Source of the DNA: Hydrurus foetidus
Taxonomy: Eukaryota
NCBI GenBank assembly: GCA_900617105.1
Contig: UYFQ01000146.1
Span: 1-64,000 of the forward strand
DNA: 64,000 bases
Direction of reading: 5' to 3'
Shown: positions 17,268 to 46,864 of the stretch, piece after piece
Numbering within the stretch: position 1 is the stretch's first letter
How the letters are laid out: each line of letters starts with the position of its first letter
Program-made: the position numbers and the translations under genes
Notes under the pieces: generated by a model
Told to the model about the DNA's origin: nothing
What the model saw: only the letters and a program-made list of their open reading frames with translations
Database searches by the model: none

Positions 17268-17294
17268 GTCAGCAAAGGAAGGCCTCGCAGATTC

Positions 17295-21621: not shown

Positions 21622-21676
21622 CCTTGCAATGCTTTTGCAACTTCTAGCTAATCTATCTAAGGATGACTGTCGTTTA

Positions 21677-21955
21677 TGTTGGAAATCTGCGCGATTTACA
21701 AGGAATTTCTTCCGAGTTCCCAAACGATCCCTGCACTTCCGACTGCTAGCAACGCTCGCTCAAAAGAGAAGAAGACGTTCTATTCGGTAAGTTGGATTAA
21801 ACGACAGTGACATGCTATCGATTACATCTAGGTAGCATAACATGAGTGCGAGGGTTGCGGTCAATGTGATCGCTGAATGTACGTACACCCGTGCATGAAA
21901 ACAATCATACATCACACAGGGTACAAGATCCTAGTCTAATCCGGATATCACAACA
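21677..21955 (-). repeat. 5' LTR of Copia A
   Basis: Direct repeat of 10202-10480. Confidence 0.95.
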
Positions 21956-22015
21956 AACAGCCTGTAGACAACACAGCGCTCGCCCTGTGGGCGGTGACTT
22001 TTTTTTTAAACGCAT

Positions 22016-22292
22016 ATTGTGGTTTCACTTTTGATTGGCAGCACTCCCCCCCCAGAGAGTTGTGAAAAACACCGCGCGCCATCAGAGAACTCAACTCGGC
22101 ACCAAAAATTTGCCGACAGGGGGGTCTAATTTCGTTTTTTTTCTAGAATCTGACCCAGGGACCAAGATTTTTTGCAAATAGACCCCCCTGGTCGGTAAAT
22201 TTTTGTTGCCAAGTTGACTTCCCTGATGGCGCGCAGTGTTTTTCACAACTCTCTGGGGGGGATCTGCTGCCAATTAAAAGTGAAACCACAAT
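22016..22292. repeat. ~277-bp imperfect palindrome (MITE-like)
   Basis: Arms of ~130 bp (ATTGTGGTTTCACTTTT... / ...AAAAGTGAAACCACAAT) are reverse complements with scattered mismatches. Confidence 0.85.
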
Positions 22293-22534
22293 TGGACCTA
22301 TTCCAACTGACTCGGGTGGTGCTTTTTAGGATAAAAATAGAGATAAAATCAGACTCGTCAAATTTTAAATCGATTTTTGCTCGACTCGAGACTCTATAAA
22401 ACCAAAACAAGAGTTGATGGCTAAAAACAAGAGTTGAGCTAAAAGAGCTAGTAAAATTCAGAACGAGGTACCTCTCACGACATTTTGAATTGCAGGCTGA
22501 TTAGATTCCTCGACAACAAAAATCATCATCTCAA

Positions 22535-23938
22535 ATGTCGGACATCGATGACGGAAGCAGCAGTGACAGTGGTAGCTCTGTCGCTAGTTCGAAGTCAACC
22601 AAAAGCTCACGGACTCCAGTAAGCTCCGGGAAAATAGACACTGTCGTTGCCAGCAACGCCACTGCAAGCGATAAATCTGCTGCTGTGGGATTGGTGGATG
22701 ACTTCTCAACTCCGACAGCATCGTCAAAGAAAAAGGTTGTCCGCAGGATCAACCTACAAATCCAGGCGGACAACGCAGCGAAAGCATCCGAGAAAGTAGT
22801 CAAAATCTCGAAATCGTCAAAAAAAACCGGCGAAGCAGTCCAAATTCGATCCTGAAATGCTGTCTGAGAATACTGCGAGAACTACAGAGAAAGTGTCAAC
22901 CAAACAGGGTGAAATCGATGCATCTGCAGCAGTCACTCACGTCACTGTTAATGGCGTTAGCTTTCCTCTTCAAGCTGCGAAGACCGTTTGGACAACAGCC
23001 GAGACACTCGACCTGATAAAGGTCCTATGCATTTCATCATCCAGCAAACATGACGTCACCTAAGAAATCGGATGTCAGAGACGATCACTTTGTACTAACT
23101 ACTCTATTTTCAGGCGTACAAGAAGTGGGACAACATGACCAAAACCTCCCAGAGTAAGAAGCTCTGCTCACTAAGCAAGGTCTGGTTGGTGAACATACCT
23201 CTTCTGATGGGCAATAGTTTCGGGAAAGTGAGATACTGTCCCAAGGACCAGCTGGCGAACTCCCCATATCAATCCAAATGGATTCTGTTGCGCCGAAAAG
23301 TTAGCGATTACAATGCAGCTCAGGTGGATGGAAGAGAGGAAGAGCTCCCAGATGTGGAGGGGCCTACAGGTGGCGGGGTTGATGAGAACGGGCTGGAAGA
23401 TGATCGGATGCTAAACGCTGCTGCTGTCGATCAGGCTCGTGATATGAAACGCAACAATCGTTTCGTCAACGCTGATATAGATGAGGAGACATTAAAAATA
23501 ATCAGCTTCTTCAATGAGTCATTTCCGGAGTCCGTTTCAGGCGTGGGCTTGATGTCAGAAACTGAGGCTACTGGCGGTGGTGATAGAAAGAGAGGTTTTT
23601 GCAATATCGACGGCTTGAACAATGATGCGCTTGCTGACGATCCGACTGGTCCACCGACGAAAAAAATCTCAAAATCGTCTTTGATCATCGACTTGACGAA
23701 GACATCAATACAGCAGCACGAAGAGATGATGGCATTTAATAAGTCTAATCTCGAATATCAGAAGGAAAGCAGAACTCAAGATATCGCTAGACGCCATGAT
23801 AGAGATGTTCGTGAGCATGAGTACCGTCAGAAGCAGGATACGATAAGTCAACAGAGATACGCAGAGACACGTGAAGATGCGAAGGAAATGCAAGGAACTT
23901 TTGCAGATATTCTGAAAACATTGGTGAATAAGCTGTAA
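22535..23938 (+). pseudogene. Harbinger second ORF (probable Myb/SANT-like DNA-binding protein), frameshifted
   Basis: Fragments 22535-22855, 22857-23063 and 23135-23938 contain WTTAETLDLI and QSKWILLRRK (Myb/SANT-like) and a coiled-coil C-terminus. Confidence 0.6.
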
Positions 23939-23952
23939 ACTTATTACACTAA

Positions 23953-25561
23953 CTAGACGATTACGTGATTATCATATGCATAGGCTGGTGCGCCATATAT
24001 GGCTCTTAAGTTATTGAGTGTCACTATCCCACCCTCCTTGTAGTCGACCCACATATTAAACATATCGCGTAACTTGATACGATACTCGTTTACAAGAAGT
24101 TGAGCATTATGAGCGAAATTTACGCCTATGAAAGTTGTTGTAAGAAATAACATAAATTATTCATTTGGAAGAAGAAGAAAGAGGTTTAATACTCTCACCA
24201 TTGTTTGCGAGAATTCTATCGCAAGCTGCATTGATTTCAACTCTGTCTGCTACTGCTTCTGCTTCATCTCTAACTGCAGCATCTTCTTCCTCGTTGACGT
24301 CTCCAGCATCGATACAAATATTATGCAGCACGCATGCGCAAAGGATTAGTTGTGGTACCACACGAGTGCTCTCAGCAATTGAGTGCTGATGCAAGCGCCT
24401 CCATTTCATTTTGAGCAGTCCAAATGCGTTCTCAACAACGCAACGTGCACTGCTGATTCTAGAGTTGAATGAGTTTTCCAGTTGATTGACAGCTGGATAG
24501 TCAGGTGCTATAAAGCATGCCCTCTTGTGAAAGCCACCGTCAGATAGAATCATGAACGGTAGTGGGAACAACGTCTCATCTCTTCTGACAAACAGATTCC
24601 TTAAAAATCGTGATCTTGAAACAGCTCCAGTATCCGCTGTGGATCCTGGCCATCGAGCATCAGCATATATAAAACGCTTCCTATGGTCGCAGATTACCAT
24701 TAGGTTTAAGGAGTAGGCTTTTTTTCTCTTACACCAGAATTCCCTAGGAATAAAACTAACGGAAAATGGTGCAGAAATTTTGATAATACTTCCATCAATT
24801 GAACCACATAAATAAGGGATATTGCATTTATTAAAAAACCATCGAGCAGCATCCTTACGTCCTTCCTCCAATGGGAAAGATATCTTAGGGTAAGGACATC
24901 CTTGGTACCAATAGGCAGATAAGAGTGCCTTGTACCCACGATCTATACGCCTACTCACACATGGCTGCCTGACTCCGAATTCTTTTCCAAGTGCATGCTG
25001 GTCACTTTGAACCGCCAAATATCTGATCAGCGTGGCTATAACAACTTTACTTCGAAGATAACGAAATCGAGCTGACTTCAAGAAGTACGTTGGACGAGAA
25101 TAGAGGAAAGGCACACAGTCGCGCGCGATGACATTGAATGTAGCCTGAGACATTCGATACTCTTTGTACCAATCCTCATTGCAACCTCGATACATATCCC
25201 AAAACGGTTGTTCCGACTTTCGACTGGAGTCAATGCAGAACATGTCTATCGCAAGAATTTGAGTCCAAACATCCTGCTGAAACTTGCTCGCACGCTGAAA
25301 TGTAATATCCTCTTCACCATCTTCGTTGAAAACATCCCTCATGTCGAATCTTTTGGATGACGTGCGCTCGTAGGAAATAGGATCACCGTTTTTTGCAGAA
25401 ATGAAAAGTTGCATGACTGTAATCATTCCGATTATGACACCGATCAGACGCTTTCGGAACCCGTTGCCAGCATCAGCGTATTCTGCTTCATCAAGAATTT
25501 CTTCGCCCGCGACATCAACGTCAGCTTCTCGATCTCTTTTTCTCGCGTTTCGATTGTCCAT
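23953..25561 (-). CDS. PIF/Harbinger DDE transposase (HARBI1-like); intron 24198-24126
   Basis: GSIDGS, WPGSTAD, LSDGG, ARCVVENAFGLLKMKW and CVLHNIC; a 73-bp GT-AG intron joins the last exon in frame. Confidence 0.92.
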
Positions 25562-25865
25562 TTGCTAGTGAAGAACTGGAGCAGGCGCAGTTCACAGAAG
25601 AAACTGAAGTGCGAGTTCAGTAGAAATAAAGTTATTCAGGTGTCGTGGATTATAGCTGCAAATTTTAGCTCAACTCTTGTTCGGCACTTTTGACTGCCAT
25701 CCAACTCAATTGAGTCTCTACCTAAAATTTTACGTCAAAATTTTACCCAAACCTAACCCAAGTGAGTTGGAATAGGTCCAAATACGTGTCTATGTCATCA
25801 GAAGGTTGAAAGAGTGGAATATATAGCATGCATGCACCAGTAGTGCAACCTTGAGGGTAACAAAA

Positions 25866-28421
25866 ATGGCTGGTTCTGATGAAAAGGCTCTTGTCAGAGC
25901 GACATCGTTACCCAAAGTACAAATTTCTATCGTGATTTTGGTCCAGCTATGCGAGGCGATGAACAGTGAGTCGTTGATCCTCTCTAGTATAAACTGTCTA
26001 CATCATTTTGACTCACTACCTTATACTCGTTTTCTCTCGATGTAGTCAATGTGCTTTTCCCTTTTGTTGCCTTCATGGTGGAAGACCTTGGCTACGGCGG
26101 GTCTAAATTGGGTTACTACGCAGGAGGCCTAGCCGCATCCTTCTGTGGTGCTCAGTTCTGCTCTTCAATTCTTTGGGGGTTGTTTTCTGACAAATATGGT
26201 CGTAAACCAGCAATTGCTATCGGCACTTTAGGAGCGGCTGTAGGCATGTTGATATTTGGCTCCGCCACAAACTATTCCACTGCTTTGATCGGTCGCATTA
26301 TCAGCGGGTTACTGAGCGGTAATTTGGGAGTTCTTAAAAGTTTCTTGACCGAGATAACTGATGAATCTAACAGAGGCTCAGGATTTTCATACATGTCTGT
26401 CGCATGGGCTTTGGGAACTATTGTCGCTCCCTTAGCAGGCGGATTGCTCTGCAAGCCAGCTGACAAGTATCCAAAACTTTTCGCTCCATCAGGGATTTTT
26501 GGAAGCTATCCATACTTGCTACCTTGCGCAATTTGTTTTGCCTTTAATGTTGTTTCGGCAGTGGTTTGTCAGCTCTTCATGGTGGAGACCCGAATGTCTA
26601 AGCAAGAAGTTTCTGTTCGCACAACCTCGACATTGCAGCCGATCAGCGGAAATACCTCAAATAGAGAGATCCTGAACGGATTCAGCGTAGAAGAGAGTTC
26701 TAAATTTTCTCTTTCCGATAGTATATCAACCGCTCAGAGAGATGGTGACAGGAAGGCAAATGGCCTCTTGGGAGTTGCACTGCAGAATATTGGAGGAGCT
26801 TTGTACAAGAGTCGACTCTACGTAGAGAAATCATTTCACCACTCAAATGAACAAAAAAGCGACATTTCATATGGAGCCCTCGATTTAGACGAAGCATCTG
26901 GTCATTATGGGCATGCAAATCATGCAGATAAGAATTACAGAGCTAGCGTCGAACTGTCAGTAATGGCGGATCAGAACTCTAGTGGGACTAGTGCAGCGTC
27001 ATCAACCAGAATGGACTCAACACGCCCTACAACAACTGATCAAGATCTTTCTGATGTACTATCATCACAGCAGAGAAGCATTGACGATGACGAAAGCTCG
27101 ATTGAAAATATCTCTTACAGTAATGATGATAGTGAGCCCGATGATGATGACGAGTATGATAATGAAGAGGAGTGTGATTGTTGCCTCTTTAGTTGTGGAC
27201 GTGAGGGTGACACATCGAACGGAAATAGAGACAGATACAGAACTCTAAATGCACCTAGCAGCTCCAGTAAAAGTACAAATCGAGAAGAATTCGATTGCGA
27301 TAGCTCAATTGAATCACAAGACAGTTGCAACAACATCGTAGCAAAAAAGAGCAGACGACATTCATACAGCAGCGGCCGGCAAGCTCAAAATGTTATGAGA
27401 TCAAGGAGCGTCGTTCTTGTAACTTGTAACTACGGCTTGCTCGCTATGGCTTTCATATTATGGGAAGAGACAATTCCACTATTTCTCAAACTCGACAGCA
27501 AAGATGGTGGATTCGGATTAACGAGCAGCGACATTGGGCTTGTGCTGTCATCTAGTGGTGGAGTCATGCTTGTTTTTACCTATCTTGTTCTACCAACCCT
27601 CGCCAAAAGAAATAAAAAATGGCTCTTTCGTCTAGGTGTCTCCAGCTCACTGCCAATTGCATTTGCAATTCCTCTATTAGCTTCTGGCAAAACAGCGTAT
27701 CCTATCATATTCGCATCGAGTAAAGGCATACTATTTCTTAAATCGCTATTGGTCGCATGTTGCGTGCTCAAGAACATTGCAGCGTGCGTTTCTTTCACAG
27801 CGTAAGTACAGTTACGGTGAATGCAGACTATGATGTCACCTCCTTATCGACGCATTTCATCGGAAGGAGATAAAATCGTTTATTGTGATTTATACACCGA
27901 TTTTTATGCACGCCATCGCAGTATGAATACCTCAGCTTTTGAAGTACGATCTGACCGAACATCTCATTGAACGAAACTACTGAAACTTCGCAGGATGATG
28001 ATTATGATCAACAACAGCGTGCTCGATGAATCTCTCGGTGTCGTGAATGGACTGGGCCAGAGTCTGGCCTCGTTGGCAAGAATGATAGGGCCCGGCTTCG
28101 GTGGCATACTGTGGAGCATCAGCATGGAGGTAGGTGAAGTAACATATCCAATACATGCATTTTCCACTGACATGTATGCCTTCCCACATGGTGTATAGAA
28201 GGTACCAAGTGCATTTCGAATTCTTTAAAGTCAATTAGTAATCATCACGAAACTTGACAATAACTGCTCTACTTCTATTTTCACCTGTGCAGACTAAATT
28301 CGCCTGGACGAACTTCATAGCCGTTTTTGTTTTACTAGTAGCGTGCCTCACAGTAAACAGCCTCCTTCCAGATTCCCTGAATTTAAAGAAATTGAATCGA
28401 CCGGTACTATCAAATGCCTAA
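25866..28421 (+). CDS. Host MFS transporter (ZIFL/tetracycline-resistance-like); exons 25866-25965, 26046-27801, 27994-28129, 28293-28421
   Basis: MFS motif A (WGLFSDKYGRKP), multiple hydrophobic helices, long Ser/Asp-rich central loop; three GT-AG introns keep the frame. Confidence 0.9.
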
Positions 28422-29094
28422 TGTCACCTTGATCAATCTTCAACGTTTTTATTTTTATTTTTATTACGTCATGATCGATTGCTGTTCGATCAGTTTACAA
28501 AGGAAACTACCCCGATTTTTCAAAAGTTTTTTTTGTGGTGGGAGTCAAATATTTGAAATCCGCAGAGCCTTTCATATACAGCCAACGAAAACGCGATGAA
28601 TCTGACTTACAGTATCTACTAATGGTTACTTGGACACTGTGTGGGTGCTACTGGACTGAGATATAGGGGTTCGCAGTTTTAGAGTCAACTCACTCCACAA
28701 TCGCACGTAGCAGACTGCTTTGTGATGTGTGGCAGTTCGAATGCTGATAGATAAAACCTCAGAAATGTTTACTAAAGAGCGAACAATCAATAGAATCAAC
28801 TGCGTCATAATCTATACGTCAGTGACTAGAAAATGAGAACTTCACAGCAACTTTGTCATTATTTGACGATATTATCTAGTTTACTTACAATTCGTAAGAT
28901 AGCGAATTCACCTCATATTCCGAATTTCCCCCAATACAGTCTCTACTACAAAATAATTAAAAATTATGCACAGTCATGAAATTAAATTTGACTCCTGTAG
29001 AAGGATTTAAAGCAAGTTGGAATTTTCAACTGTAATATCTATTTGATCAAAGGTAACGCAGACTCGGATCTGTCTGCTGCCAGAACATGATCGT

Positions 29095-30020
29095 TTATAC
29101 TACCTTCATGGGTCTTTCCTCTGAAATTTCTCCTTTCTCTAATCTGACTTGATCATCGATTAGTTCGCCAGTTGGCAGCTGCTCATAAGCTGCATTAGTG
29201 TCTCTTCGAACATCTACTTCGTAATTAACTTGGGCGGCCATGCATCCGATAGCAGTATAAAAAACAATCTGTGCTACAACATGGACCAAATGAGCTAGAT
29301 GTCGGAGCTCCCTCATAAATATGGCGAGGATGTCGCAAACGCTGTAATTTAAACAATTTTGAACTGCTTAGATAATTGAATGGACTAAATGAGGCATAGC
29401 TTTTCTGATATTTTTAGAGGGGTCTCACCATGATAGAATCTGCAAGCAATTTGCTAGTCTGATAACTCTGTTGTCACACGGATCAGACCGAAGGCCATAC
29501 TGATCCATAATCATAACTCTGCTGGAACTCATACTTGGACCGACGCATATCAGTGATTCTACGCAAAGACAGAAGGTAGGACAGTTTCTTTCACCGCACG
29601 ATCCAGCGTGGAAGCAATAATTATCCATGTAACCTGAATTCAGAGTATTCGAGAAGGTGGAAAAATCATGAACATTAATCATTCCCTTCTTAAATGATCT
29701 GCAAATTATGGGAAGGTTGGACGAGCCTTGGCAGCACACGTAGCGGCTCATGTCCCCGTCAAGCACACGATATCGGGTGTAGTACGCTGAACAGAACGGA
29801 AGACAGTATGTCAGGCAGCAGATTGGCTGATTGTGGGTGAGGCCATCCATCATGGAGATCTGAGGGATAAATGCATTCTGTTCATTCATCGGGCTGATAA
29901 AAAGGGACAGCAACCCTCATATTGATACGTTTTCTCACTTGAAATTTGTCAGATCGCGACGCTCTGACATCGCCCGGTAGATCATCGCCAGAGAAACAGA
30001 GGAGACAGCAAGCCATGGCA
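29095..30020 (-). CDS. Host PLAC8-family cysteine-rich protein (multi-exon; start codon uncertain)
   Basis: CCLTYCLPFC, RYVCCQG/YMD, AGSCGERNCPTFCLCVE, DPCDNRVI and GCMAAQ, separated by GT-AG introns. Confidence 0.75.
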
Positions 30021-30103
30021 AGAGATAATGTAAATTGTCCGAGGGGATCGACAAATATCACATAGAAGTTTTCAGTTTCTGACTTTACCAGGCTTTTTTT
30101 TTA

Positions 30104-30517
30104 AGAGTCACCGGCCCTAGCTGTGCTCTTTTTTGAGTGTAGAATTTGTTCGTACAGCATACCGGCAGGAAGTTTTCGAGTTTCTCACCAAATTCAATTC
30201 TGTAAATTGGGTTCGGTTAAAATCACCAATATCTACTTGCGTTATACCTGCAGCAGGGCATTCGAAAAAATTTTTCTGTACGTGTGCCACCTTTTTAATT
30301 CGAAAAATAGTGAGTATTTTCGAATTCGGAAAAAGTGCCCTGCAAAAGTTTGGAGTACAAAATTTTATGCTGAACACGAATATCGAAACCGTTTGTTCCA
30401 ATTCACTGAAGTGAGAAACTTCCAACCGGTTCAAATTTGAGTGTAAAAAAGCGTTTTTTCGGATTTTATCATTTTTTTTCGTGTAAAAAAAAGAGCACAC
30501 CTGGGGCCGGTGACTCT
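30104..30517. mobile_element. Non-autonomous deletion derivative (MITE) of the IS630/Tc1 element, copy 1
   Basis: TIR AGAGTCACCGGCCC...GGGCCGGTGACTCT with TA on both sides; the interior matches the ends of copy 2. Confidence 0.85.
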
Positions 30518-30836
30518 TAAAAGAGTCACCGGCCCTAGCCGTGCTCTTTTTTGAGTGTAGAATTTGTTCGTATTGTTGAGGTCAAAACAAAACGCCAGAA
30601 CCGAGATTTTTTCTTCGAAAAGATGTTCTCTTTCATTTATTTTTTTCCTTTCAAAAGAAATAATCTCTCTCAAAAGCCTCGCGGCAACACCACGATCACA
30701 ACAGCTAGAAGAAGTGAATGCAATTGACCTACCATGATCAAGGCAAAGAAGTGTCAAGTTGAGCTAACGAAAATGTTCATTGACTTTAAAGGTTGTTCGC
30801 GATCACACTGTCGATTTCCCGACACAAAACAATAAA

Positions 30837-32025
30837 ATGGAACCTTCAATTGTTTTGATGTCCCGCCAGAGAACAAAGGACAGGTCAAAGGTCACTGCAA
30901 TTCTTGATGCTGACCTTCACAAGCTATCAGTATCGATAAGCTACGACGGTGGATTTATGTACGATGGTGCGATCACATGCGGAATTTCAAGCACCGACAC
31001 GACTCAGCACAGGCTATTCGCCTTCGACGTCAGTATCGAGGACGAATGTCCTGTAGAGCCTTCAATTCTAGACATTGATGAAGTAGCTGAGCTGGCAAGA
31101 TCTTACATGAGAACGAAAGGTGTCGATTTACCAGCAGAGAAGTACAACACTTTCCTCGTCTCACCACTTCAGAAAGATGTGTCAAAGAAGGGTGCGGCGA
31201 ATGCCAAATATCGGGCAATTGTCACTGCACCAAATCACGAGGTCTTTACTCCCGGATTATCCGCATCGAACCCTTGTTCCAATCAACGGATGCCGCACAT
31301 CTTTTTCTCCAAACCGGTTGAGACTAAAGCCCCTATGGAGAATAAGAGAGGCAGTAGTGCTGCAGTCAACACGAGCACAATTCATGACGCGCTGAAGAGT
31401 CTCAAACGTTACCTCAGAGTGACATTCAGCACAAAATCGAAGCAGTTGCCTCATTATGCGGCCTTATTTGTCTATGCTAATGCCGACGCTTTGGAGAATT
31501 TCGTTGACCTCATAGGGGATATTGCATTAAAGGATCAAAAATTGTTGAATCAAGTTTCAGGTAACTTTCGTTTGTATCCTACTTTCAAAGTTGTAGCTGC
31601 TAACTCAGATTGTATTTCTCCTGTTTACAGATAATCTTAGCATCAAAGAGACAGTTGCTTTCTTGAGCAACATTTTCGTTTCAGTATCCTCTAATGACTC
31701 TGTGGAGCTGCCCTTGGGAGTGGGTCGCCTCAACCGGTACCCTGAGACGTCATTCTCAACATCATCTAGCTCTGCAAGCAGTTCCAGTACCTATGCTACA
31801 ACCGCCCGGGACGAAACACTGACAACTCGTAAGCGATCCCGCGAAGACGATCTCTACCCCGATGAGGGTGACTTCAATCCAGAAACCATTCAACACTCAG
31901 CGACTGAATCCCCCATTGTGAGACATGCCCGAGTGACAAGTGATTTCAAACAATGTTTAGATTGCGATGAAATGAATCTACTGCCGTCGAAATTTTGCTG
32001 CCAATGCTGTTCTGTTTTTCCTTAG
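30837..32025 (+). CDS. Uncharacterised accessory protein of the IS630/Tc1 element with a C-terminal zinc ribbon; intron 31561-31684
   Basis: A GT-AG intron joins ORFs 30780-31634 and 31663-32025 in frame; CLDC...FCCQC at the C-terminus. Confidence 0.65.
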
Positions 32026-32120
32026 AAGTCGAAGACATTTTGTAAATTCAAAAATAAAAATCGCTTTTCGTTTAGAAATTTTTGAGTCACGAAGCGAATA
32101 ATGCAAAACAAGACGTTTTA

Positions 32121-33161: not shown

Positions 33162-33767
33162 GATCTGTTCTCAAGCCAAAATTACTGGTTGGGGAGTGCC
33201 TTGTTCCAGCAAGTAATGTTGTCAGATGTATCTGTATTCTGATCACCGTCGACAAGAAATTGTTCTCTTCCGAGAGAGAAATGTGTTTTGAAAGCGAAAT
33301 ATCTTTTGAGAGAGACCGAATCTTTTGAGAAAATCTGTGTTCTGGCGTTTTGTTTTGACCTCAACAATACAGCATACCGGCAGGAAGTTTTCGAGTTTCT
33401 CACCAAATTCAATTCTGTAAATTGGGTTCGGTTAAAATCACCAATATCTACTTGTCTACTTGCGTTACCTGCAGGGCATTCGAAAAAAGTTTTCTGTACG
33501 TGTGCCACTTTTTTAATTCGAAAAATAGTGAGTATTTTCGAATTCGGAAAAAGTGCCCTGCAAAAGTTTGGAGTACAAAATTTTATGCTGAACACGAATA
33601 TCGAAACCGTTTGTTCCAATTCACTGAAGTGAGAAACTTCCAACCGGTTCAAATTTGAGTGTAAAAAAGCGTTTTTCGGATTTTACCATTTTTTTTCGTG
33701 TAAAAAAAAGAGCACACCTGGGACCTGGGGCCGGTGACTCTTAAAAAGAGTCACCGGGAGCAGGTAT

Positions 33768-36700
33768 TGTTGGGATATGCGTAGACTAGGAATCTCTTTG
33801 GGGATAATATCATGAGCGATATCCAGTCCGGATAGTTGTAGCTTAGGCATACGTTTTATGATTCCTTGTAGACCGGTTGATACTATACACCAACCCGCGG
33901 TCACATCAGGAATGAAATGTTGGAGTGATGAATCACACCAAGTAGCATACTAGCAGTTAGTATACAGCTGATGAAGTGGATGTTTTGACATGCTAACCAC
34001 TTCTTATTAAAAGAGACTATATGACATCACGTCATTATACCTACACTAGTTGACTTTTCTGCTGCTCTGGCTAGGCTTGCATTTCACAAGGTGTATTCTC
34101 AAAGAATCACTAGCAACCTACCAGTTCAGTACCGGGATCAGTTATCCCTAAAGAAACGGTTTTACCAAGATAATAAGAAGCCTTTAAAGACTTTATCATG
34201 AGTCAAAAAGGTTCCAAAGGTGGTGCGCCACCGAGGAAAGATGAGGGTGCAAATGGATCCCTTGAAAAGAGGACCATACCCGCAGGATTGGTTGAGATCA
34301 GCCATGATTGCCACAAGCAGTGGGATTCAATCATAGCTAAGCTGAAGGCGTACTGCAGAGATAACTATCAGGATCTACAGTCAATCTGTCAGGAGCCGAT
34401 GAAAGTGACTGTTGCACCGGCATACCGGAAGCACCTACCACCGATGCCCTCTGAGGCAGAACTGGAGGTGATCAGAAAAGAGAACGACCCAATTGGAGAT
34501 AAAAACAAAATCTTTATGGGACTACTCAGCGGCAGGAACAACCAGTACCTCAAATTACTGACCCAACAGAAGATCGACAAGGAGAACTGCTACACAGTCA
34601 TTCGAAAGATGTGTTCAGCACAGCTCAACTCGCTACTCGCTGTCGACGCTGCATTCATAGCCTGCGAAGAAGACGACCCACTCGAGTTGCTTCGTGTAAT
34701 CAAGCGCCTCGTCACGGCTCGACCAGATGGAAATGAAGAACTCGACCGTCAGAAAGCCCTTAGCGAGTGGTTTGGAGCGAGGTGATTCTAAGTTATGGCA
34801 GGCGTGCTATCAAAACATTTGAAAGACTCACCACGACTGGAATACCAGTGGAAGAACAGCCAAAGCCAAAGCAGCAATCAATGCGCTTCATTGATGGACT
34901 CGATGGATCAGTTCCGGCATACCACGGTTACAAGATGAACCTGATCAATGCCAAACAGCAAACGGATCGAGACATATACCCTGCGACTCTCGTCGACGCA
35001 ATCCTGCGAACAACAAGATTTGAGACATCATTCATTGAGAATATCAATGCAACCCTCCCTCCAACAACGCCACATTCAGCATTCGGAGCTCAGCAGCAGA
35101 CTGAAGATCGAGGAAAAAAGGGTGCCAAGCAGTTGGGGAAGGGCAAGGGTCACAAAGACAAACCTTCCAGCAAAGACACCAAGGCCGAACCCGACAAAGA
35201 CAAACCAAAAATAAAGTTCGAAGGCGAGTGTTTCAACTGTGGCAAGTTTGGCCACCGAAAATCTGAGTGCCGGAGCAAGGCGAAAGACGAGCCGAAAAAG
35301 GTGCGATTTGAGAAAAATCCAGAGCCGGCAAACAAGGCGAGCAGTCACTCCTCATATTACACATCATTTGGCAACATGCATGATGAAGAGGATGAAGAAA
35401 TGGAAGATGATGATCGAAGATGCAATGTCGCGTTGAAAGGATCTCCACCCGACGACGGTGACGGAATCAGTCTACAGGCCACCCGAACTTCAATCCAACC
35501 ATCATCGACCGAAGCGATTTTCGACACCGGTGCCACCGGCACAATCATCACAAGCGCTGATGTTCTCTCAGAGATTTGGACGTGTCGGCCAACTGTGTTT
35601 AAGGGCTTGCATGGATCCTTGACAGTGACAAAAGTCGGCAGACTTGGTGATATCGGCATCGTTCACTTCGATGATCGGGCGGCGCTCTCCATCATTTCAG
35701 CTTCGGATATCCTTTTGCAAGGACACAACTGGGAGTTCCAACGTGGAGGACATGTTGATCAAGATGCTTTCCTGGTGCACACAGCAAAGCAAACCTATCG
35801 CTTTCAACATCGAGGTGGACTCTATGTTTGCGATCTTGCATCACGACCAGAGCCTCGACATGAGAGCTCCAACAAGTCGAGATTAGAGTCAGCCAACCCC
35901 GCCATCGCTCTCAATAAGGCAGGAGGACCTTTTTCTCAGCTCCTTTGCCAACAACAACGGCAAATGAGGCAGCGTACTCCAAGCGCGAGGTTGCTCGAAG
36001 CTTCGATGCCCGACGGCTACAAGCAAGCCTTGGATTCCCACCCGACGCCAAGATGATCTCTGCTTTGAACGCCGGAGCATTCCTCAACTGCGACATCCTT
36101 CCTGAAGATGTTAATCGAGCAACTGCGATCTGGGGTGCCAACATCGCTGCTCTGAAAGGGCGAACAGTTCGAGCCCGACCATTTCCAGCATTGCAAAGTC
36201 ACCGTGATTTTAAAAGTCACCGTGATTTTAAAAGTCACCGTGATTTTGATGAGCAACACATGCATTGTGATGTCATGTTTGTCAATAAGCAACCATTCCT
36301 GGTTTCCATCACACATCCTCTTGGCATTGTCCTCGTTGCTTGCGTGGAGAATCTCACAGCGCCAATCCTGAGACAAAGCATCAGGAGGATGTTCGGCACC
36401 ATCGGATCCCGCAGTATCAAGATCACCCGCTTCACCAGCGACAATGAACGAGGGATCGCGGCGCTTGCAGGAGACATGAATGCAATGGGCGTGGCCGTCT
36501 CTCTCGTCGGACCAGGTCAGCATGATCACATCGTGGAGCGGATGATCCGCCACCTGAAGGAGACCATTCGGGCCACCATACACAGCCTACCCTACCTAGT
36601 CGCTGACGCGATGATGAATCACTTGGTGCTGAGCTGCTCCAAGAAACTACTGTTGTTCCCTTCGTCCACACGAACGGACAAAATATCTCCCTTTGAGGCC

Positions 36701-39662
36701 TTCTTCGGGAGAAAGGCTGATACAAAGATGGACATCGGTCCACCTTTCGGCACCTACTGTCAGGTCACCAACCGCACCATGTCGAATGGCATGGACCAGC
36801 GCACGATTGGATGCCTTTACCTGGAGCCGAAGATGAATGGCACAGGAACACATGCATTCCTTCGGTTGGACAATCGGGCGACCATCAATGCGAACCACTA
36901 TGTGGTACTGCCGATCCCACCCATCGTTATCACTACCGTGAATGGGTGGGCGGCAAAGAACAAGCTGCATACCTCGATCGACCCGATCTTCACATTCCAC
37001 GACCGAGACATCACAAATGATGTCGACAATGATGCCGTCGGAAACATTACTCGTGCAGCACCACCGACAGCGGCACCAATCGGAGACCGCGGACCCATTC
37101 AGGACCCAAGTCAATTCCCACCGCACCAATCGGTTTTGAATCCCCACCGACACAATCGCCAATGGAGATTCGGGGTGAGACTGATACGGTTCCAGACACA
37201 GAAAACCTACATGAAACTTCTGGCGAAATATCGGAACCAACGGAGCCCGTTGAAGAGATTCCGGAGGAGAACGCTTTTGATAGTGCACCGGTGAACGTAC
37301 GTAAGTACACACCTCGACCCATAGAACCAAGGGAAAAGTCATCCAGACTGAAGAAACCAATCGACCGACTTAACTTAACAGCGGAAGAAGTATCAACTCA
37401 AGCACAAGAAATCGACAATCCGCATGTTTGGTCGATGATGTCAGTTACTCGGGGACTGAAGCTCTTCCCGGAAAAGACTGCATTCGCCATCGAGTCAGAG
37501 GTCAAATCGCTCCTCGCAAAGGACACATTCTCAGGGGTGCACATGTCACAACTGACACAACCACAGCGAAACAAGATCCTGCGTTCGATCATGAACGTCA
37601 CGGAGAAGTTCCTACCCACACTAAACTCGGAGGGTAACCGAGAGATCGACAAGGCCAGGTTCTGTGTCGATGGGCGCGCGCAAGTGCGAACCGACTACAA
37701 GCCCGATGAGATCGAATCACCCACTGCTTCCATGGCCGCAATATTCACCGTAGCGCAACTGGCGGCAGCGGAGAAACGGTTTGTTATGGTGGGTGATGTG
37801 GGGTCCGCGTACCTCAACGCGAAAATGCCGCTGGATAAACCGGATAAAATCCTGCACATGATGGTAACTAAAGATGTGGCGGATGAAATCGTACGACAAG
37901 ACAAGTCATTTGCTGCGTACCGAATGCACAATGGAAGCATTCTGGTACGTCTGAACAAGGCACTATATGGCTGTATCGAGTCTGCCAAACTGTGGTATGA
38001 AGAAATAGCCGGAACCCTACGGTCCAACGGTTTCACGGCCAACCCGCGCGACCTTTGCGTCTTTAACAAGAGCATCAAAGGAAAGCAATTCACGATTGTT
38101 GTCTACGTCGACGACTTAAAGATGACGTGTGTTGACAAGGACGCTGTCCTCGCCATGGAACAGATCCTGCTAAAAGTTTACGGCCAATTCAGGACAACAC
38201 AGGGGCCTATCGTATCGTACCTAGGCCTGACCTGGGACTACAGTGAAACAGGATACGTGAAAGTTTCACAAGCAGGGATGATCCAAGACATTGTCGCTGC
38301 AAGAGAGAAGACTCACAAAGACCGCGGAACCAAACCCGCTGGAATTCCGCACTCACCAGGTGCTCCTCACCTGTTTGATCGAACCCCTGACAGTGAGCTG
38401 TTGAGTGCCAAGGATGCAGAAATATATCACACCGACACCGCAACCATTGCATGGACATGCTCGCGTGCACATCCGAGCCTCACAACAGTGGTGGGCGAAC
38501 TCTCAAAACGAGTGAAAGCACCATCCTACGAGGATGACAAGAAGCTCGACAGGGTCATCAGCTATGCGAAGTACGTACGTGACGTACCCCTACGACTCAA
38601 AGCTGACCTCCCACCAAGAGTCACGGTATCAATTGATGCTGCATTTGCGAATCGCGACAACATGAAATCAACCTCAGGAATGTGCGTCACATTAGGGGTG
38701 GGATTTTTCATCACGAGTTCCAAGGTCCAGAAGCTGAATTCCAAGTCGAGCACGGAGGCTGAGATCATCGCGATGTCCGACGGGATAAACATCCCATTAT
38801 GGCTCGCAGACTTCATCCGCCTTCAAGGATATGATCCACAACCAGTGCGATTGGAGCAGGATAACCAATCCTGTATCACACTACTTACGAAAGGTCGGTC
38901 TACCGCAGAGACCACCAGGTTCATCGAGATCCGGAAATTCTGGATCTCGGACTATATCAAGAACGGTGCAGTGGACATTGTCTATGTTCCCACGGCGGAA
39001 ATGACTTCCGACTACTATACAAAACCGTTACAAGGTGCGATTTTCGACAAAATGTTCAAGAAAATAATGGGACAAAAGTAACATCTCTTTATCTCACACT
39101 CAAAAAGTCACCGTGATTTTTGACTATATGGTTATGATGATAACTACGCAAAAACCTATATTAGTTATGATAATTACCACGTTTTACACCATGTGATGAT
39201 AATTAATTTGCATGATACCTAAACAACCATGTGACTGAATGTCGATGACATTAGGGGTGTGTTGGGATATGCGTAGACTAGGAATCTCTTTGGGGATAAT
39301 ATCATGAGCGATATCCAGTCCGGATAGTTGTAGCTTAGGCATACGTTTTATGATTCCTTGTAGACCGGTTGATACTATACACCAACCCGCGGTCACATCA
39401 GGAATGAAATGTTGGAGTGATGAATCACACCAAGTAGCATACTAGCAGTTAGTATACAGCTGATGAAGTGGATGTTTTGACATGCTAACCACTTCTTATT
39501 AAAAGAGACTATATGACATCACGTCATTATACCTACACTAGTTGACTTTTCTGCTGCTCTGGCTAGGCTTGCATTTCACAAGGTGTATTCTCAAAGAATC
39601 ACTAGCAACCTACCAGTTCAGTACCGGGATCAGTTATCCCTAAAGAAACGGTTTTACCAAGA
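33768..39662 (+). mobile_element. Ty1/Copia LTR retrotransposon B, full length
   Basis: 403-bp LTRs (33768-34170 and 39260-39662) that appear identical and end in CAAGA; TSD GGTAT; PPT AGGGGTG. Confidence 0.96.
34198..39081 (+). pseudogene. Copia B gag-protease-integrase-RT-RNase H in four overlapping frames
   Basis: CFNCGKFGHRKSEC knuckle, FDTGAT protease, HCDVMF/SDNE/VERMIR integrase, VYVDD RT, SIDAAF/SSTEAE RNase H; three frameshifts. Confidence 0.93.
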
Positions 39663-39817
39663 GGTATCCAGGCCAACGAACTAGGCCAACAGGCCAGGCC
39701 AGAGATAGTACGGCATTAATATCAGCAAGTGGAGGGGCTATTGACTTCACCTACTGAAGTATTTGTCCTGACTAACAACAAAAACATTTGAACTTTTTGC
39801 CGCCAAATTTCGCTGGC

Positions 39818-40300
39818 ATGTCAGAGGAGTTTAATGAGGATAGAGAAGATGAGGCTGTCAGTGGTTCCTCGCCTTTAGAGGAAGCACGTAAGAGAATTGA
39901 TCTTGCTTTGATAGATATCAAAGAGAACAATTCTCCACTTGAACGATTCCCATGCACACTATTCAACGAATGTAGGTTCAAGTTAATGAGTGATCAATCT
40001 ATGAAAATCATACAGACTTTGTTTTTACACCTGTGTAGTATTCAAGACCAGAGGAGATGGACAATCAAAAGTGGTTACACTACTTCTCGAGGCCTGAGAG
40101 CGTACAGAGGTGTCTGTTCTAGATCAGGAACGCAGTCTCATAGTCTGATTCACTGCAATAGAAGGACGTCATCAAAGTGTAAATGCACGGCATCTTTTAC
40201 TCTTTTTGATGATGGAAATGTCGTCTTTAAGAGTGACCATGCGGAGCTATGCTTAACAGATCCAGATATGGGAAATGACGGCTACGTTTTCAATTCTTGA
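39818..40300 (+). CDS. FAR1/WRKY-like zinc-finger protein fragment inside the TIR element
   Basis: VCSRSG...RTSSKCKCTASF...H resembles Mutator-associated FAR1/WRKY-GCM1 DNA-binding domains; no catalytic domain seen. Confidence 0.5.
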   Translation: MSEEFNEDREDEAVSGSSPLEEARKRIDLALIDIKENNSPLERFPCTLFNECRFKLMSDQSMKIIQTLFLHLCSIQDQRRWTIKSGYTTSRGLRAYRGVCSRSGTQSHSLIHCNRRTSSKCKCTASFTLFDDGNVVFKSDHAELCLTDPDMGNDGYVFNS

Positions 40301-40706
40301 CCCGAGTCCTTCAGAACTTTCTTTTTTTCTAGGGAAGCTAAGTCTATGAATGAGAGTGCAAATCATGAGTATCAAAATCTACAAAATCCTGTACATCTGT
40401 TTCTCTGGGAAAAAACAGCCATCTAATCGAGAAAAGAAATGTAGACAACATTACCTGATGAATATGAGTCGTCCTGAAAAAGACGTGATGCTGCCGAGCT
40501 CCACAGCCTATAAATTGGCTGTTTTGTCCAAGATACAGATTATCGTCGAGTGAGATGTAGATAGGCTGCGCTCCTGATGTAGATCAGTGCCAATTATTGC
40601 CGTACTATCTCTGGCCTGGCCTGTTGGCCTAGTTCGTTGGCCTGGATACATGCTCCCCTAGCCGCAGGCGTGCTCTTTTTTTAGTGTGGAATTTGTCCGT
40701 ACAGCA

Positions 40707-43700
40707 TGTTGTAAAAAGTGGACTTCTAGGTGTGCCGTATGTCCCATACGGTTGGTCACAAGCTCCCCACTGCACTCTTCGACGCGGCTTCACTTGCTCT
40801 GTCTGGACTCAGAAGAGAAGTTTCGCTGTCGGCTACGAGTTTGGGTTAATTAGCACTACTGCAACGCAGTAGTAGTCGAGTGTAGTCGGTAGTTGTCGCA
40901 ACAGGTTGATGGCTATCTTATATCAAATACGTCATATCGTATGTAGTACGGTACTGCTGTGGTGCAACACCGTACGTGTGGTTCAAATATGAAATACAGA
41001 TAATAGCATCACATTTGTACACGGAATATCTAGTCTACATAATACTGATATTACTACACAGCATACCGGCTGGATGTTATCGTATTCAATTCAAGCAAGT
41101 TTATTCAATTATTATTTCAAAGGCATTATTATTCATACGTGTTCATTCAATATTAATCATAATTAAAGTTTCATCAATGGCTCCGGAATGTTACGTCGGT
41201 GTCTTGAAAATCGATCTCAGTCGGAAAGAATGTAGCAGAGGTTGGTGGTAGGAATTTATAGGCAGTAGAAATAGTTGGCGGTTGGAATTGTCGGTTATAG
41301 AGGGAAGTTTGCTTTTGACAAAGTTGGCGGTTAGAAGTAGTTTATCGTAGGAATGTTGGTTCTGGAGTCTTCGTCTTGATGTGTCTCCAGTTGATGTGTC
41401 TCGACCATATATGGTGTAGGCTCGAGTGTAGGTGTCTTGAGTGTTCTGACTTGGAGATTGATGTCGTAGGGCAGAAGGAATTCGATGGAATCGAAGATTC
41501 ATAAGTAAAAACAGATTCATATAATACATAGAGTTGATGTTGGCCAAAGTAGTAGGAATTATTTTGGCAAAGCGTAGGTAGAAGGAAATTCGAATAAATG
41601 GAATACTCAGGTGATGCCGAGTAGTTTATCTCGGAAAGCTCTGAACTGCTCTCCTTGAAGGGGTTCCGTTAGCATATCTGCTAACATGTCAGTGGTTGAC
41701 TTGTAAACGATGGCGATTTCCTTTTCTCTTACCCCGGTCGTGTAGGAAAAAATACCGGATATTGATGTGGCGCGTACGTTCGCTGTTGGAGCGACCGTTG
41801 TTAATAAGTTGGATCGTTGATTTATTGTCTTGAAAAATGATGGCGCTCCTGTCTTGATATCCCTGATCTATAAGGAACAGTCGTGCCCACAGCACTTGAT
41901 TGGCTGAGTCGCTCAGTCCTACTAGCTCGGCTTCGGTACTCGACTTCGTGGTTAGCTTTTGAGTTGAACTCTTGGCATACACTACGGCTTTCCCTAGTGT
42001 GATGGCGCTTCCAGTGTGGCTCTTCATATCTATGTGTACGCCGTCAATATCTAGGAGGCGTCAATATTACATGTGACTGTGATGGGGTCTTCGACTCGTA
42101 GGGTGAGTCCTAGGTCTTTAGTGCCCCGTATGTACTGGATAGTACGTTCCAGCTTCTTCATGTCTTCGACTTGAGGCTTCGTCACCCGCTTGGTTCAAAA
42201 CGCTACCGGCGTCAAGATGTTTGGTCTTGCCCTTTTGCTAAGGTATAGCAGCTTCGCTGTAGGTGAATGAAAATACTCACGAGCAGAAATGGTTAGTAGT
42301 GGGTCAGAAGTATCCGGTTTTACGGAAAATAATTCCGACTTGGCCGGTGTCGGTGCCACCCCTAGAATCTTTTTACAGTCTTCTAGCAGCTCCTTGACGA
42401 ATCCCTCCATGGTTATCCTAACCTCCCCGGCTGACTCGAAATTAAAAGTCATACCTATGTAATTAAGTACTTTTCCTCGATGTTTCGTTAGTCCGGGATA
42501 TAGTTTTTCAATTTCATGAATTATCATATCAACATATTCGTCATTGCAACACGATATCATCATGTCATCAACGTGAATAATCAATGTGGTTTGAGATTTA
42601 CTGTTTTCGATTCTGTTAAATACACACAGGTCATATGCATTAGCAGTATAACCTAATATAGACAAGTCATGTGAAATTTTATCGTACCACAATTTTGCAG
42701 ATTCAACACATCCATACAATGCTTTCTTCAATAACAATGCATGTACCCTTATCATTAACATATTTCATATATGAATTATCAATGGATGTCAAAACAGCAG
42801 CCAAATACTTATTCAATCTCATAAACACCGTGTGACTACCTTCTAGTGCCATATCGCTATTTAAAACTGCTCCTGGAAAATCTATCGTAGCTAATGATCG
42901 ATTCTCTTTCGCAGCAATTGAAGCAATAATAAACACACTAGTAGTACTAACAGTAGGTGATGAGCCATTATCATAAATATCTCCATCTTGTAAGTGACCT
43001 CCTGCAACTAATCTTGATTTTAACTTATCAAATTTACCTACAGCAGTGTATTTATCTTTCAAAAACATACTACTGGTAATGATGTTGTTACGTTGTGTAG
43101 GTGTAAGTGAATCAATTAACACTCCCTCCCACATATCCTTCTCACACATCTATTGCATCTCTTTTCTAATGGAATCGACAGCTATATCACCTAACTTATC
43201 GATACCGTCTTTAACAGTCATGTTAAAAGCATATGAACAATCAAGGCGATGTAACGCTTCAGGTATACAACATCCTATGTTCCTATTTCCTCTCTTAGAT
43301 ACCCATCTACCTGGTTGATGATTTTTAGCACTCCGTCTCAATGCAGGTTGTTCTATCTCAGGTAGTTCATCAGTAAGTACGTCATCAGTTGTGTACGTAT
43401 CTTCTATGGCATCAACAGTTTCATCATATGTAAGTACATGGTCGTCAACGTACGTGCTGTCTACATCAGGTGCATCATATTCCATCGCAACATCGTCATG
43501 TTCAACAGGTTCAAAATCAGCATCATCAGTATCAAGCTGCGTCCATAATCATCCATCGTGGCATCATTATCAGGCATATCATTAATATTATTCTCATCAG
43601 TCACCATTTGCACATCGGGTGGTTGAGGCAACACAAACGGTTCAGCATCATATGAATCATCATACATTTCATCTGAATGTGGTGTGACTGAATTACTAAA

Positions 43701-46700
43701 TCTTCTCGTATTATTATTATAGATTTTCTCATCATCATAATCTAGTCCATCATCTACTATCAAACGCCTATTCTGTTCAAACACAGGTTGGTTAGTGTTA
43801 TTACCCTTATTAATGTTTCTCTTATCGGATAATCCATTAAGGTTAGTAATCACTTCATCAGGCATAGGTAGTGATGTGGCTTTAGTGCGTTTTACTATCT
43901 GTTCATTACTGAGTAACATGTAATACCAAGATCCTTCTAGATTGCCTGCACTCATTAGAGCGATAGCACCTGAAGTTCTGGCTTTATTACTTTCATCAAT
44001 ATTGTCAGAGTGCACTTGTACATAGTCACCAAAACCATGTTTCAGTTCTTTGTCTACATTTATCTTCCTACCGTATAGTTTCTCTCTGGGGCTGACGTAG
44101 TCTACGGTGTTCCTTGTCGGAACTAACACTATACGGTTAACAGCGTATCTAACTAACCATCCATCTAACTTCTCGGATAATCTAAGTGGTAGTGTATTGA
44201 TTACTGCTCTAACTCTTTCTTTAATCTGACGCTCAACTACGGTAACTGCCTCACCTGCACCTGTCGTGTCTAATGCAGCACCTATTGTAGCTAACTTAGT
44301 TTCAAACCATACTGAATTGATGGCGCCTTCTCCATCAACTCTGACTCAATTTAAACTGAAACCATACTTAGTTATGTGTCTAACGTCGCTCTCTAAGCTA
44401 ATCCACAGCGTAAGATTGGCTCTGTTATTTAACTTATTTACCATAGTATATTCTAATGGCTTAACAACGGCAATCAAAAATGGGTTGCCGTTAACAAACA
44501 TAATGTCTATATACATAATTTGATCTCTCTGCTGTATATTATCTAACAGTGGTTGCTCCTCTTTAACCTGTGCCTGATGGCGTGGCGTTTTTCTCTTTAG
44601 GGAGCCTAAGTCAGGACCCCAGATATCCAAGGATCTAACTACATCTTGTGCTGTAATATTACTGTTGACTAGTTTACCCTGTAAAAAGTATAAAAATCGC
44701 TCCCACTACTATACTTCATAGAGTAGCAATTATTTACCATGTTAGCAAAAGACAAGATGTTGGCTATACAATTAGGGTCAAAGTATACTAATCCGAAGTC
44801 CGTCGTACCGCACTCTCTGATAACCATCGGCTCTTCTCTACTATTAACTCTATTAACTATCATGGGTGTATCAGCAGGCACAATGTCATAGAACAGTGCA
44901 GCAGTTCTGAGTACAGATTCGCCAGCACATGTGTCAAGAAGCAGTTGATTGTCAGCAAATACATCAGAATCATTCGTGATATCCATGCTAAATATATTGC
45001 TATCTACTGCTGGGGTCTCCGTCACTGGAGCTTAGTCATCTATAAATTTAATTTGTACATATTTAGATATTCGTACGTGCTCAACATTATTATTCACAAC
45101 ACTAGTCACATTATTATTCACAGTAATAGCTATGTCATCATGTAAATAATCATATAAATGACTTACTTTCCCTTCCCAGGTGATGTAGTCGGTTTCCCTC
45201 CAGGGCTCTTTCCTCATTCCTCGCCCCAGTGCTGCACCACTGTGTCTGCTGCATCTGCTCTGCATTCCCTAGCCAGGTGCCCGTATTTCCCACAGTTATG
45301 GCATGGACCTCTCCTGTACCCCGCTGGTGGGTATTTGTTGGAGGTGTATGCAGCTGCCACCGGAGATCCTTTCTCGCTGCTGCTGCTTCCTTCGGGAGAG
45401 TCTGGTCCGTCTCGCACCCATTTCGCGTTCGGAGCGCTCTTCCCTTTGTGGCCTTCAGGATATCCTCCTCGGCCTCCTCTTCCTCCTCTGCCAGTCATGG
45501 CGAATGCGTTCGCCCTTTCCGTAGCTGCAGGTGAGTTGTACGCTGCATGTTTGGGGTTATATTTCGCTGCTTCCTGATAAGCAGTCTCTAAACAATCTGG
45601 CCATGGCTTAAGCCCGTTGGTAAAGAATGATCGAAATTCCCCGTAATTGTTATTCAGTCCCAAGATAAATTTCACCGCCATCTGACCCTCTGGATAGGTC
45701 TCATCAAGTGCTCCACGACCAGCCATTTCATAGGCTTGTTGAATGGCCGTGAGAGCTGACTTGGTATTGATGTAATACATGCTAAGATTGTCATGTTGCC
45801 CCATGACAAGGTTGTTGTAGCTTTGTGTAATCATAACATTTGATGAGCTACTCCGAGTGTTGAGTCTCCGATATGTGTAGCAAGGATTGCTTGCATTAAC
45901 TTCCGAGGCTCAAATTCGTTTTCATCTTCGACTCCTGCCTGCACTTCCGAGACTCTAGTCTTAGAACTCTCGGACATTTGTCCCAGCACCACACCGTACA
46001 GATTTCCCTTATCTTCGTCAAGGGTTTTGATATTCTTGTTATAGTCGACCATCTGCAATTCCCATATCTTTCTATCGTAGATCAATGCATCTTCCGCAGG
46101 TTGGTCGGGTAGTGCATAGACTGGGTAGTCACCCAAAGTCCCATCTGCACCGAATATCATACTAACTCTCGATTTATATGTTGTCATAGCATATTCTTTC
46201 ATCTTGGCCATCCACTTGGTAACCGTCCCATGGGCGATGTCCTTCCCAGGCGGTAGATCCAAGTATGCACCTATCGTGGGGATATTCCCACGATGGTGGT
46301 TCGGCGTCGCTGGAGATCCTCTCCCACCACGATCGCCGAAGTAGCCTCGTCCACGTCCCTGATGAAGACTTCCATGTCCTTTCATCGTGGCAACTTCTTG
46401 TTGCAAACGATGGTGCTAATTATGTTGTGAAAAGTGGACTTCTAGGTGTGCCGTATGTCCCATGCGGTTGGTCACAAGCTCCCCACTGCACTCTTCGACG
46501 CGGCTTCACTTGCTCTGTCTGGACTCAGAAGAGAAGTTTCGCTGTCGGCTACGAGTTTGGGTTAATTAGCACTACTGCAACGCAGTAGTAGTCGAGTGTA
46601 GTCGGTAGTTGTCGCAACAGGTTGATGGCTATCTTATATCAAATACGTCATATCGTATGTAGTACGGTACTGCTGTGGTGCAACACCGTACGTGTGGTTC

Positions 46701-46772
46701 AAATATGAAATACAGATAATAGCACAATTTGTACACGGAATATCTAGTCTACATAATACTGATATTACTACA
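40707..46772 (-). mobile_element. Ty1/Copia LTR retrotransposon C (degenerate)
   Basis: LTRs 40707-41058 and 46423-46772; TSD CAGCA at 40702-40706 and 46773-46777. Confidence 0.93.
41607..46406 (-). pseudogene. Copia C gag-pol with many frameshifts and stops
   Basis: CHNCGKYGHLAREC, LLDTCA, YIDIMF integrase, KLKSRLVAGG, IHVDD and SSTEAE. Confidence 0.92.
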
Positions 46773-46864
46773 CAGCATACCGGCTGGATGTTTTCGAGTT
46801 TCTCACCAAATTCAATTCTGTTAATTGGGTTTGGTAAAAGGCACCAATATCTAACTGCGCTGTA

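Follow-up and report, generated by a model that had tools for sequence, protein, structure and literature searches.

How do Copia retrotransposons start reverse transcription when the sequence behind their 5′ long terminal repeat (LTR) does not look like the complement of a tRNA end? The question is raised by a 64,000-nt stretch of the Hydrurus foetidus contig UYFQ01000146.1 (hereafter, the window), which carries three Copia elements, designated A, B and C. A previous reading of the sequence alone had noted that, in each element, the bases following the 5′ LTR are complementary to a segment within the same LTR, and had proposed a self-priming, tRNA-independent Copia lineage. Based on sequence comparison, A, B and C appear to belong to a large Copia clade of aquatic protists whose primer-binding sites (PBSs) are complementary to their own LTRs, and they are probably primed by the first 10–19 bases of their own RNA. 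Observed directly are the pairing, its location immediately at the LTR end, and its persistence with different letters across families.

Pairing of the primer-binding sites with their own LTRs

The LTR limits of A, B and C were set by repeat search and by the 5-bp target-site duplications. Both LTRs of each element are nearly or fully identical (277 of 279 positions in A, 403 of 403 in B and 348 of 350 in C), which indicates recent insertions. Starting from the first base after the LTR, exact complementarity to the LTR extends over 11 nt in A, 10 nt in B and 10 nt in C, and the pairing partners occupy LTR positions 148–158, 233–242 and 201–210, respectively; the positions and sequences given for these stretches by the sequence-only reading were reproduced without change. 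Compared with 5000 dinucleotide shuffles per LTR, a match of this length at offset 0 has p = 0.0004 (A), 0.0010 (B) and 0.0006 (C), and p = 0.0006, 0.0018 and 0.0014, respectively, when offsets 0–5 are allowed. When the PBS of one element was compared with the LTR of another, only 4–6 nt matched, and the host flank beyond the 3′ LTR, used as a control, gave 5–7 nt. The Gypsy chromovirus nested inside A served as an internal control and gave 4 nt at offset 0; its own PBS lacks both a TGG start and pairing with the LTR. As a candidate self-primer, this Gypsy element was rejected after 18 possible LTR ends had been tried, the best match being an AT-rich one of 8 nt near the LTR start.

All three elements carry a reverse transcriptase (RT) of the RVT_2 family (36.8 bits in A, 64.7 in B and 36.4 in C, with a cut-off of 31.6) and the acidic motifs of RNase H, and comparison with full-length relatives confirmed the order gag-protease-integrase-RT-RNase H for B and C. 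Copia domain order and RVT_2 RT rule out membership of the Tf1/sushi group of Ty3/Gypsy. A and C are sisters with 63% RT identity, and B is approximately 40% identical to its nearest loci. The description of the three elements as complete did not hold: A has lost its protease and integrase by deletion and is split by the Gypsy element, and the reading frame is broken in B (three frame changes) and in C (more than three).

Variable letters and conserved pairing in related families

RT-based scans yielded 101 loci, of which genome contigs contributed 22 and metagenome contigs 79, with RTs 30–40% identical to that of B. From these loci, the non-coding stretch from the RNase H stop to the gag start was cut out, giving 63 regions; 17 head-tail and extra regions were chosen by eye, and 39 loci dropped out for want of an RNase H end, a gag start or an LTR. 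Six regions (L003, L008, L031, L066, L071 and L093) with no LTR interior or no junction were set aside, and L094, a relative of L089 with an imperfect arm (9 nt exact), was left out of the count. The 57 regions retained represent 50 families at 80% RT identity, or 53 when A, B and C are included. RT-based scans of viral contigs, gag-based scans of viral and of metagenome contigs, and a search for longer gag relatives returned no relatives; the integrase alignment was too variable to serve as a search query.

The signature of self-priming is lineage-wide across these RT-defined families. An exact match to the own LTR, counted from the first PBS base, covers at least 9 nt in 50 of the 53 families, at least 10 nt in 44 and at least 12 nt in 30, compared with 18, 5 and 0 of 2756 cross-family pairs; the family count is partly circular, since the junctions were mostly set from the best arm (8 by hand). 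In a blind search for the longest inverted match in each region, with arms at least 50 nt apart, the downstream arm of the best match began at or beside an LTR end reading AACA in 32 of the 50 families (0.7 expected), and the match exceeded all 40 shuffles in 31. Anchoring the comparison at any AACA gave at least 10 nt in 29 of 50 families vs 21 of 2450 cross-pairs. These two analyses are the fairer, non-circular test; their numbers are lower because LTR ends other than AACA are missed.

The claim that the sequences differ while pairing is kept was thus borne out well beyond the window. The PBS 10-mers of the 51 positive families are all different. Between L037 and L044 (80% RT identity), 4 of 15 positions have changed on both sides with every pair kept, and in the sister families L029 and L024 both arms have changed together at 3 of 10 positions. 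Judged by complementarity to a tRNA 3′ end, none of the 53 PBSs qualifies, as none begins with TGG. Among the 51 positive families, 16 PBSs start with TAA, 26 with NAAT and 19 with NAATT; the TAA start and the TTA^A end of the LTR segment, noted earlier as shared features, both describe A, B and C, but the TAA start is not a general trait.

An alternative is that the pairing represents a long-range RNA structure, involved in packaging or translation control, and that the actual primer is another RNA. L053 and L078, which have long open frames despite showing no pairing (6 and 5 nt), fit this explanation. A structural helix, however, need not begin at the first base after the LTR, as the best match does at AACA ends, nor end at an initiator-like site; it would also permit G-U pairs and mismatches, whereas 44 of the 53 families keep at least 10 exact pairs, and it leaves unexplained the insertions restricted to the far edge of the PBS that are described below. 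We therefore consider a purely structural role very unlikely. The loss of complementarity that was to be looked for in related families is confined to L053 and L078 and is not seen in the other 51. In a FastTree tree built from query-anchored rows, whose backbone has poor support and which lacks a labelled outgroup, these two families are separated from each other among the positive ones, A and C are joined (0.995), and B lies on a long branch.

Three further features of the relatives were recorded. L080, L086, L092, L097 and L099 have very short LTRs, in which no more than approximately 35 nt separate the arm from the RNase H stop, and leaders of 200–370 nt before gag. L032 and L054 consist of tandem copies with one LTR in common, although L032 may be an assembly artefact; the available part of PMC11042837 describes such a one-LTR tandem arrangement as a product of integrase-independent insertion of Tf1. 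L001–L022 are Copia elements of the eukaryotic clade that lie within contigs of bacterial metagenome-assembled genomes, most likely as a result of binning contamination.

Predicted start sites, the far edge of the primer-binding site and candidate primers

When three registers are allowed, 47 of the 51 families have a pyrimidine-A step at the 5′ edge of the LTR arm, which is CA in 43 and part of TCA in 33 (CA frequency, 0.056 per position). This edge resembles the oomycete initiator YCAYTYY (PMC3599244, in the portion available) and the TCAH motif of diatoms (PMC4686930, likewise in part). Counted from the edge A, the primer would be 9–19 nt long, with peaks at 10–11 nt (16 of 47) and 15 nt (18 of 47). 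On the basis of this initiator-like context, transcription likely starts at the A of 21808, 33999 and 46573 in A, B and C, respectively, which for B and C is one base upstream of the position proposed earlier, and the predicted primer counted from this +1 A is 11 nt in each of the three. At 46574, the window copy of C reads TA, and nearly all aligned contigs read CA (a change seen in four runs as A>G of the + strand).

By analogy with Tf1, self-priming would proceed as follows. RNA polymerase II would start at the A of the (T)CA initiator, that is, at the 5′ base of the arm, and the 5′ end of the RNA would fold onto the PBS across a region of 70–360 nt comprising R and U5. The RNase H of the element would then cut behind the paired stretch, leaving a 3′-OH that faces the last LTR base. 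As plus-strand synthesis would copy the primer, each cycle would rewrite the PBS from the 5′ end of the RNA, and the far PBS edge would record any wobble of the start site and perhaps the cap, as a C. Recopying of this kind would keep the match exact while the letters drift, and under it the far PBS edge should vary, as seen in C.

With the RNA begun at the assumed start, and with no control fold for comparison, the predicted probability of the helix between arm and PBS is 0.96–0.99 in A, B and C and at least 0.5 in 40 of 44 families. All of the sequence evidence would fit equally well if the own 5′ sequence acted as primer but was supplied by another copy of the RNA, by a short capped transcript or through a cut by a host nuclease, rather than by cleavage in cis by RNase H; the loose NAAT start of 26 of the 51 PBSs could even be the recognition site of some cutter. 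The ready formation of the predicted cis helix argues against such a source, as does the use of RNase H by Tf1, the sole mechanism that has been worked out experimentally (PMC7175516). Release by a ribozyme is unsupported, with no Rfam match in the window or in 20 loci, and a loose hammerhead core pattern occurs in only 3 of 60 regions, none of them from A, B or C. A primer supplied other than in cis seems to us unlikely.

Contigs of family C vary at the place where self-priming from the RNA 5′ end predicts it. The insertions fall precisely where the self-pairing ends on its far side, between 46413 and 46412, and on the element strand an extra T is present there in 43% (run X14), 54% (X15) and 49% (X5) of the contig depth, which is not a copy count. 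This T pairs with the predicted +1 A. For B, the X1 contigs break at 34180, the final paired base, with no variant listed, which hints at a branch at that point. Additionally, many contigs match only a block around the arm (33981–34049 in B and 46558–46579 in C), a hint that the arm block is common to otherwise different LTRs.

An RT can place a C opposite an RNA cap. As a lead in this direction, a C follows the paired stretch in A, B and C and in 22 of 51 families, where 12.8 would be expected (p = 0.004). This excess is modest, the same position is A in 18 of 51, and the families are not independent. Together with the circularity of the family count, this tempers the case for self-priming, and several other observations weigh in the same direction. 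One X1 contig carries a TG insertion that pairs with the -1 C and the +1 A, but its depth is 4.2 and it may be an error. A TT insertion at the same edge (7–9% in X14, X15 and X5, and 13.1 of 23.7 in X1) consists of one pairing and one non-pairing base, and an insertion one base further out (approximately 3%) adds no pairing. L053 and L078 are 2 of 53 families without the pairing, L027 has one mismatch in 11, and inspection by eye found no TATA box upstream of the three arms.

A last point of this kind concerns tRNAs. Half-tRNA priming has been predicted for several Copia lineages (PMC6317226), and bases 3–13 of the C PBS can pair over 11 nt with the anticodon arm region of a tRNA-Ile(AAT) identified with ARAGORN at the viral locus L162. 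The predicted duplex of C with this tRNA is also stronger than the self-duplex (-15.9 to -16.6 vs -11.7 kcal/mol). If tRNA halves were the primers, as predicted for Bianca and Osser/Bryco, the match to the LTR would be incidental. Nevertheless, in three runs approximately half of the contig depth of family C carries insertions at the C edge that interrupt the match to the tRNA and extend the match to the LTR; together with the variable PBS and the lack of a match elsewhere, these insertions argue against tRNA-Ile as the primer. Fifty-one different PBS 10-mers are irreconcilable with one or a few conserved tRNAs. None of 120 viral loci with the complement of the B PBS contains a tRNA, and for A one of 120 does, a tRNA-Ser(GGA) in which the 10-mer lies downstream of the anticodon. 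Priming by tRNA halves is therefore, in our estimation, extremely improbable, and the match to a tRNA fragment, which was to speak against self-priming, exists for C alone and is opposed by the variation within its own family. A conserved Bianca-type PBS for the tRNA-Ile anticodon arm was likewise rejected as a candidate, the fit being limited to the window copy of C (at most 7 nt in the other 59 of 60 regions) and broken in many C copies. Separately, a tRNA-Ala(AGC)-like sequence was observed on the opposite strand within a Copia 3′ untranslated region (L091, 5767–5839).

Structure of the window and relation to known systems

The coordinates of the three elements and of the predicted priming features are collected in Table 1.

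Table 1. Features of Copia elements A, B and C in the window
Feature	Coordinates	Strand	Remarks
A LTR arm, predicted self-primer	21798..21808	-	11 nt; begins at A of TC-A; start inferred from initiator-like context
A PBS	21666..21676	-	Exact complement of arm, then C
B predicted +1 A and LTR arm	33999..34009	+	+1 A at 33999 (context CCACTTC), arm 34000-34009; start inferred
B PBS	34171..34180	+	Exact complement of arm, then C
C LTR arm and predicted +1 A	46563..46574	-	Arm 46572-46563, +1 A at 46573; start inferred
C PBS	46412..46422	-	PBS 46422-46413; related copies vary by insertion between 46413 and 46412
Copia A 5′ LTR	21677..21955	-	279 bp, TG..CA; target-site duplication CTGTT
Copia A 3′ LTR	10202..10480	-	From repeat search
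A truncated gag	20770..21621	-	Protease and integrase missing behind gag
A RT, first part	19521..20549	-	As far as the Gypsy insertion
A remaining RT and RNase H	11045..11971	-	
Gypsy chromovirus	11972..19521	-	Nested inside A
Copia B 5′ LTR	33768..34170	+	403 bp, TG..GA; target-site duplication GGTAT
B gag (zinc knuckle)-protease-integrase-RT-RNase H	34198..39081	+	Copia order; three frame changes
Copia B 3′ LTR	39260..39662	+	Identical to B 5′ LTR
Copia C 5′ LTR	46423..46772	-	350 bp, TG..CA; target-site duplication TGCTG
C gag-pol	41610..46385	-	Copia order; several frame changes
Copia C 3′ LTR	40707..41058	-	352 bp

A tandem duplication of 52 bp (10476–10579) spans the polypurine tract and the first bases of the A 3′ LTR. 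The 3′ LTR of C is preceded by no polypurine tract; in its place lie 24 nt that nearly match the host sequence flanking the 5′ LTR (41059–41082 vs 46773–46796), a copy that may be due to gene conversion, rearrangement or assembly error. The insertion sites of B and C are both ends of DNA transposons: B was inserted approximately 10 nt into a terminal inverted repeat belonging to a 1-kb DNA element (33763–33767, 39663–39720 and 40593–40649), and C lies at the tip of a repeat (46773–46857) that also occurs at 30153–30239 and 33368–33454, around a DDE_3 transposase. DNA of B occurs in sediment, freshwater and air metagenomes and in one organism. Judged from the analysis of the sequence, the host would be an aquatic protist and probably a stramenopile.

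Other features of the window include the nested Gypsy element, in which gag and pol share one frame with a single TAG (17295–17297) between them, suggesting readthrough, and, at 1003–1878, the end of an RNase H that belongs to another, more distantly related type of Copia (22–24% identity to the clade). A near-perfect inverted repeat of 847 nt with a 101-nt spacer occupies 46862–48656. Between 49318 and 60775, 11.5 kb bounded by 153-nt inverted repeats and encoding an A32-type packaging ATPase (57457–58245) and a laminin-G/lectin protein look like an endogenous Polinton-like virus.

Self-priming is best established for Tf1, where it was shown by experiment and uses RNase H (PMC7175516). In the available parts of the respective sources, the 3′ end of approximately half of the Tf1 cDNA still carries the PBS as DNA, with untemplated bases added by RT as well (PMC11042837), the RNA of Tf2 is copied only if its start site lies in the LTR (PMC5341516), and Tj1 is treated as well (PMC4600332). 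The elements described here resemble Tf1 and Tf2 of Schizosaccharomyces pombe, Tj1 and the Tf1/sushi group in their self-pairing, with predicted primers of 11 nt in A, B and C. In contrast, Tf1/sushi elements are Ty3/Gypsy, whereas A, B and C are Copia, with integrase before RT and an RVT_2 domain; across the protist clade the mechanism is inferred, not demonstrated as for Tf1, and lengths range from 9 to 19 nt.

Within Copia, self-priming has been predicted for 89% of 203 elements of the plant lineage TAR (PMC6317226). The portion of that paper available gives the criterion as at least 10 bp of the LTR complementary to a stretch starting 0–5 bp after it, a description that also applies to A, B and C, and cites an earlier self-priming proposal for Houba and Osr-1. 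Self-priming Copia elements are thus already in print, as a prediction, whereas the sequence-only reading knew of no description; of the lineage proposed there, the self-priming part gained comparative support from the families and from the C-edge variants, and the novelty part proved too strong. TAR is a plant lineage, whereas the elements studied here come from aquatic metagenomes and have the RT motif KALYGC[IV]ESAKLWY and a weak RVT_2 score (64.7 bits in B). In the open literature, as distinct from subscription papers, we found no publication on self-priming in protist or diatom Copia.

The ESM Atlas clusters nearest to the B RT are eukaryotic RVT_2 proteins, the commonest phylum being Bacillariophyta (3–4 members with known phylum), a lead that may point to a likeness to the CoDi elements of diatoms (CoDiI, CoDiII and CoDi6). 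The part of PMC2806351 available, which deals with CoDi, holds no discussion of priming: 'tRNA' has 0 occurrences there, and the single 'PBS' is a buffer. According to the accessible portion of PMC5445492, fungal GalEa Copia elements lack a tRNA PBS and have a Conserved Hairpin Site, whose CHSeq1 (CTGATCAGT or CTAATTAGT) loosely resembles the NAATT start of 19 of the 51 PBSs in our set. The GalEa partner, as reported in the same portion, lies 12–41 bp downstream and is conserved in sequence, and a complementary LTR segment was not found; here, in contrast, the partner lies 73–359 nt upstream, within the LTR, and its sequence is variable. The predicted priming of Bianca by half a tRNA-Ile and of Osser/Bryco by half a tRNA-Met (PMC6317226, in part) is comparable in that their PBSs lack a TGG start, and C additionally matches the tRNA-Ile anticodon arm. 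The PBSs of the elements described here differ in that they are unconserved across families and track their own LTR.

A further proposal, which we put forward tentatively and hold at somewhat less than an even chance, is that self-priming may have arisen in this protist clade, with at least 50 divergent families from fresh and marine waters, separately from its origins in Tf1/sushi and in plant TAR. Each cycle would write the PBS anew from the capped 5′ end of the RNA instead of handing it down directly, so that genomic copies would record the choice of start and the cap (as C), and the primer would be free to drift within two length classes of 10–11 and 15 nt.

If self-priming is correct, the RT and RNase H of Copia elements would also be able to make their own primer, and the switch away from tRNA may have occurred more than once. 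Annotation tools that seek a tRNA PBS would score these elements as having none. The protist Copia clade is large and has been recently active, as the identical LTRs of B indicate, and its dozens of families supply natural compensatory changes, exact predictions of start sites, and primer 5′ ends that would be readable from genomic DNA.

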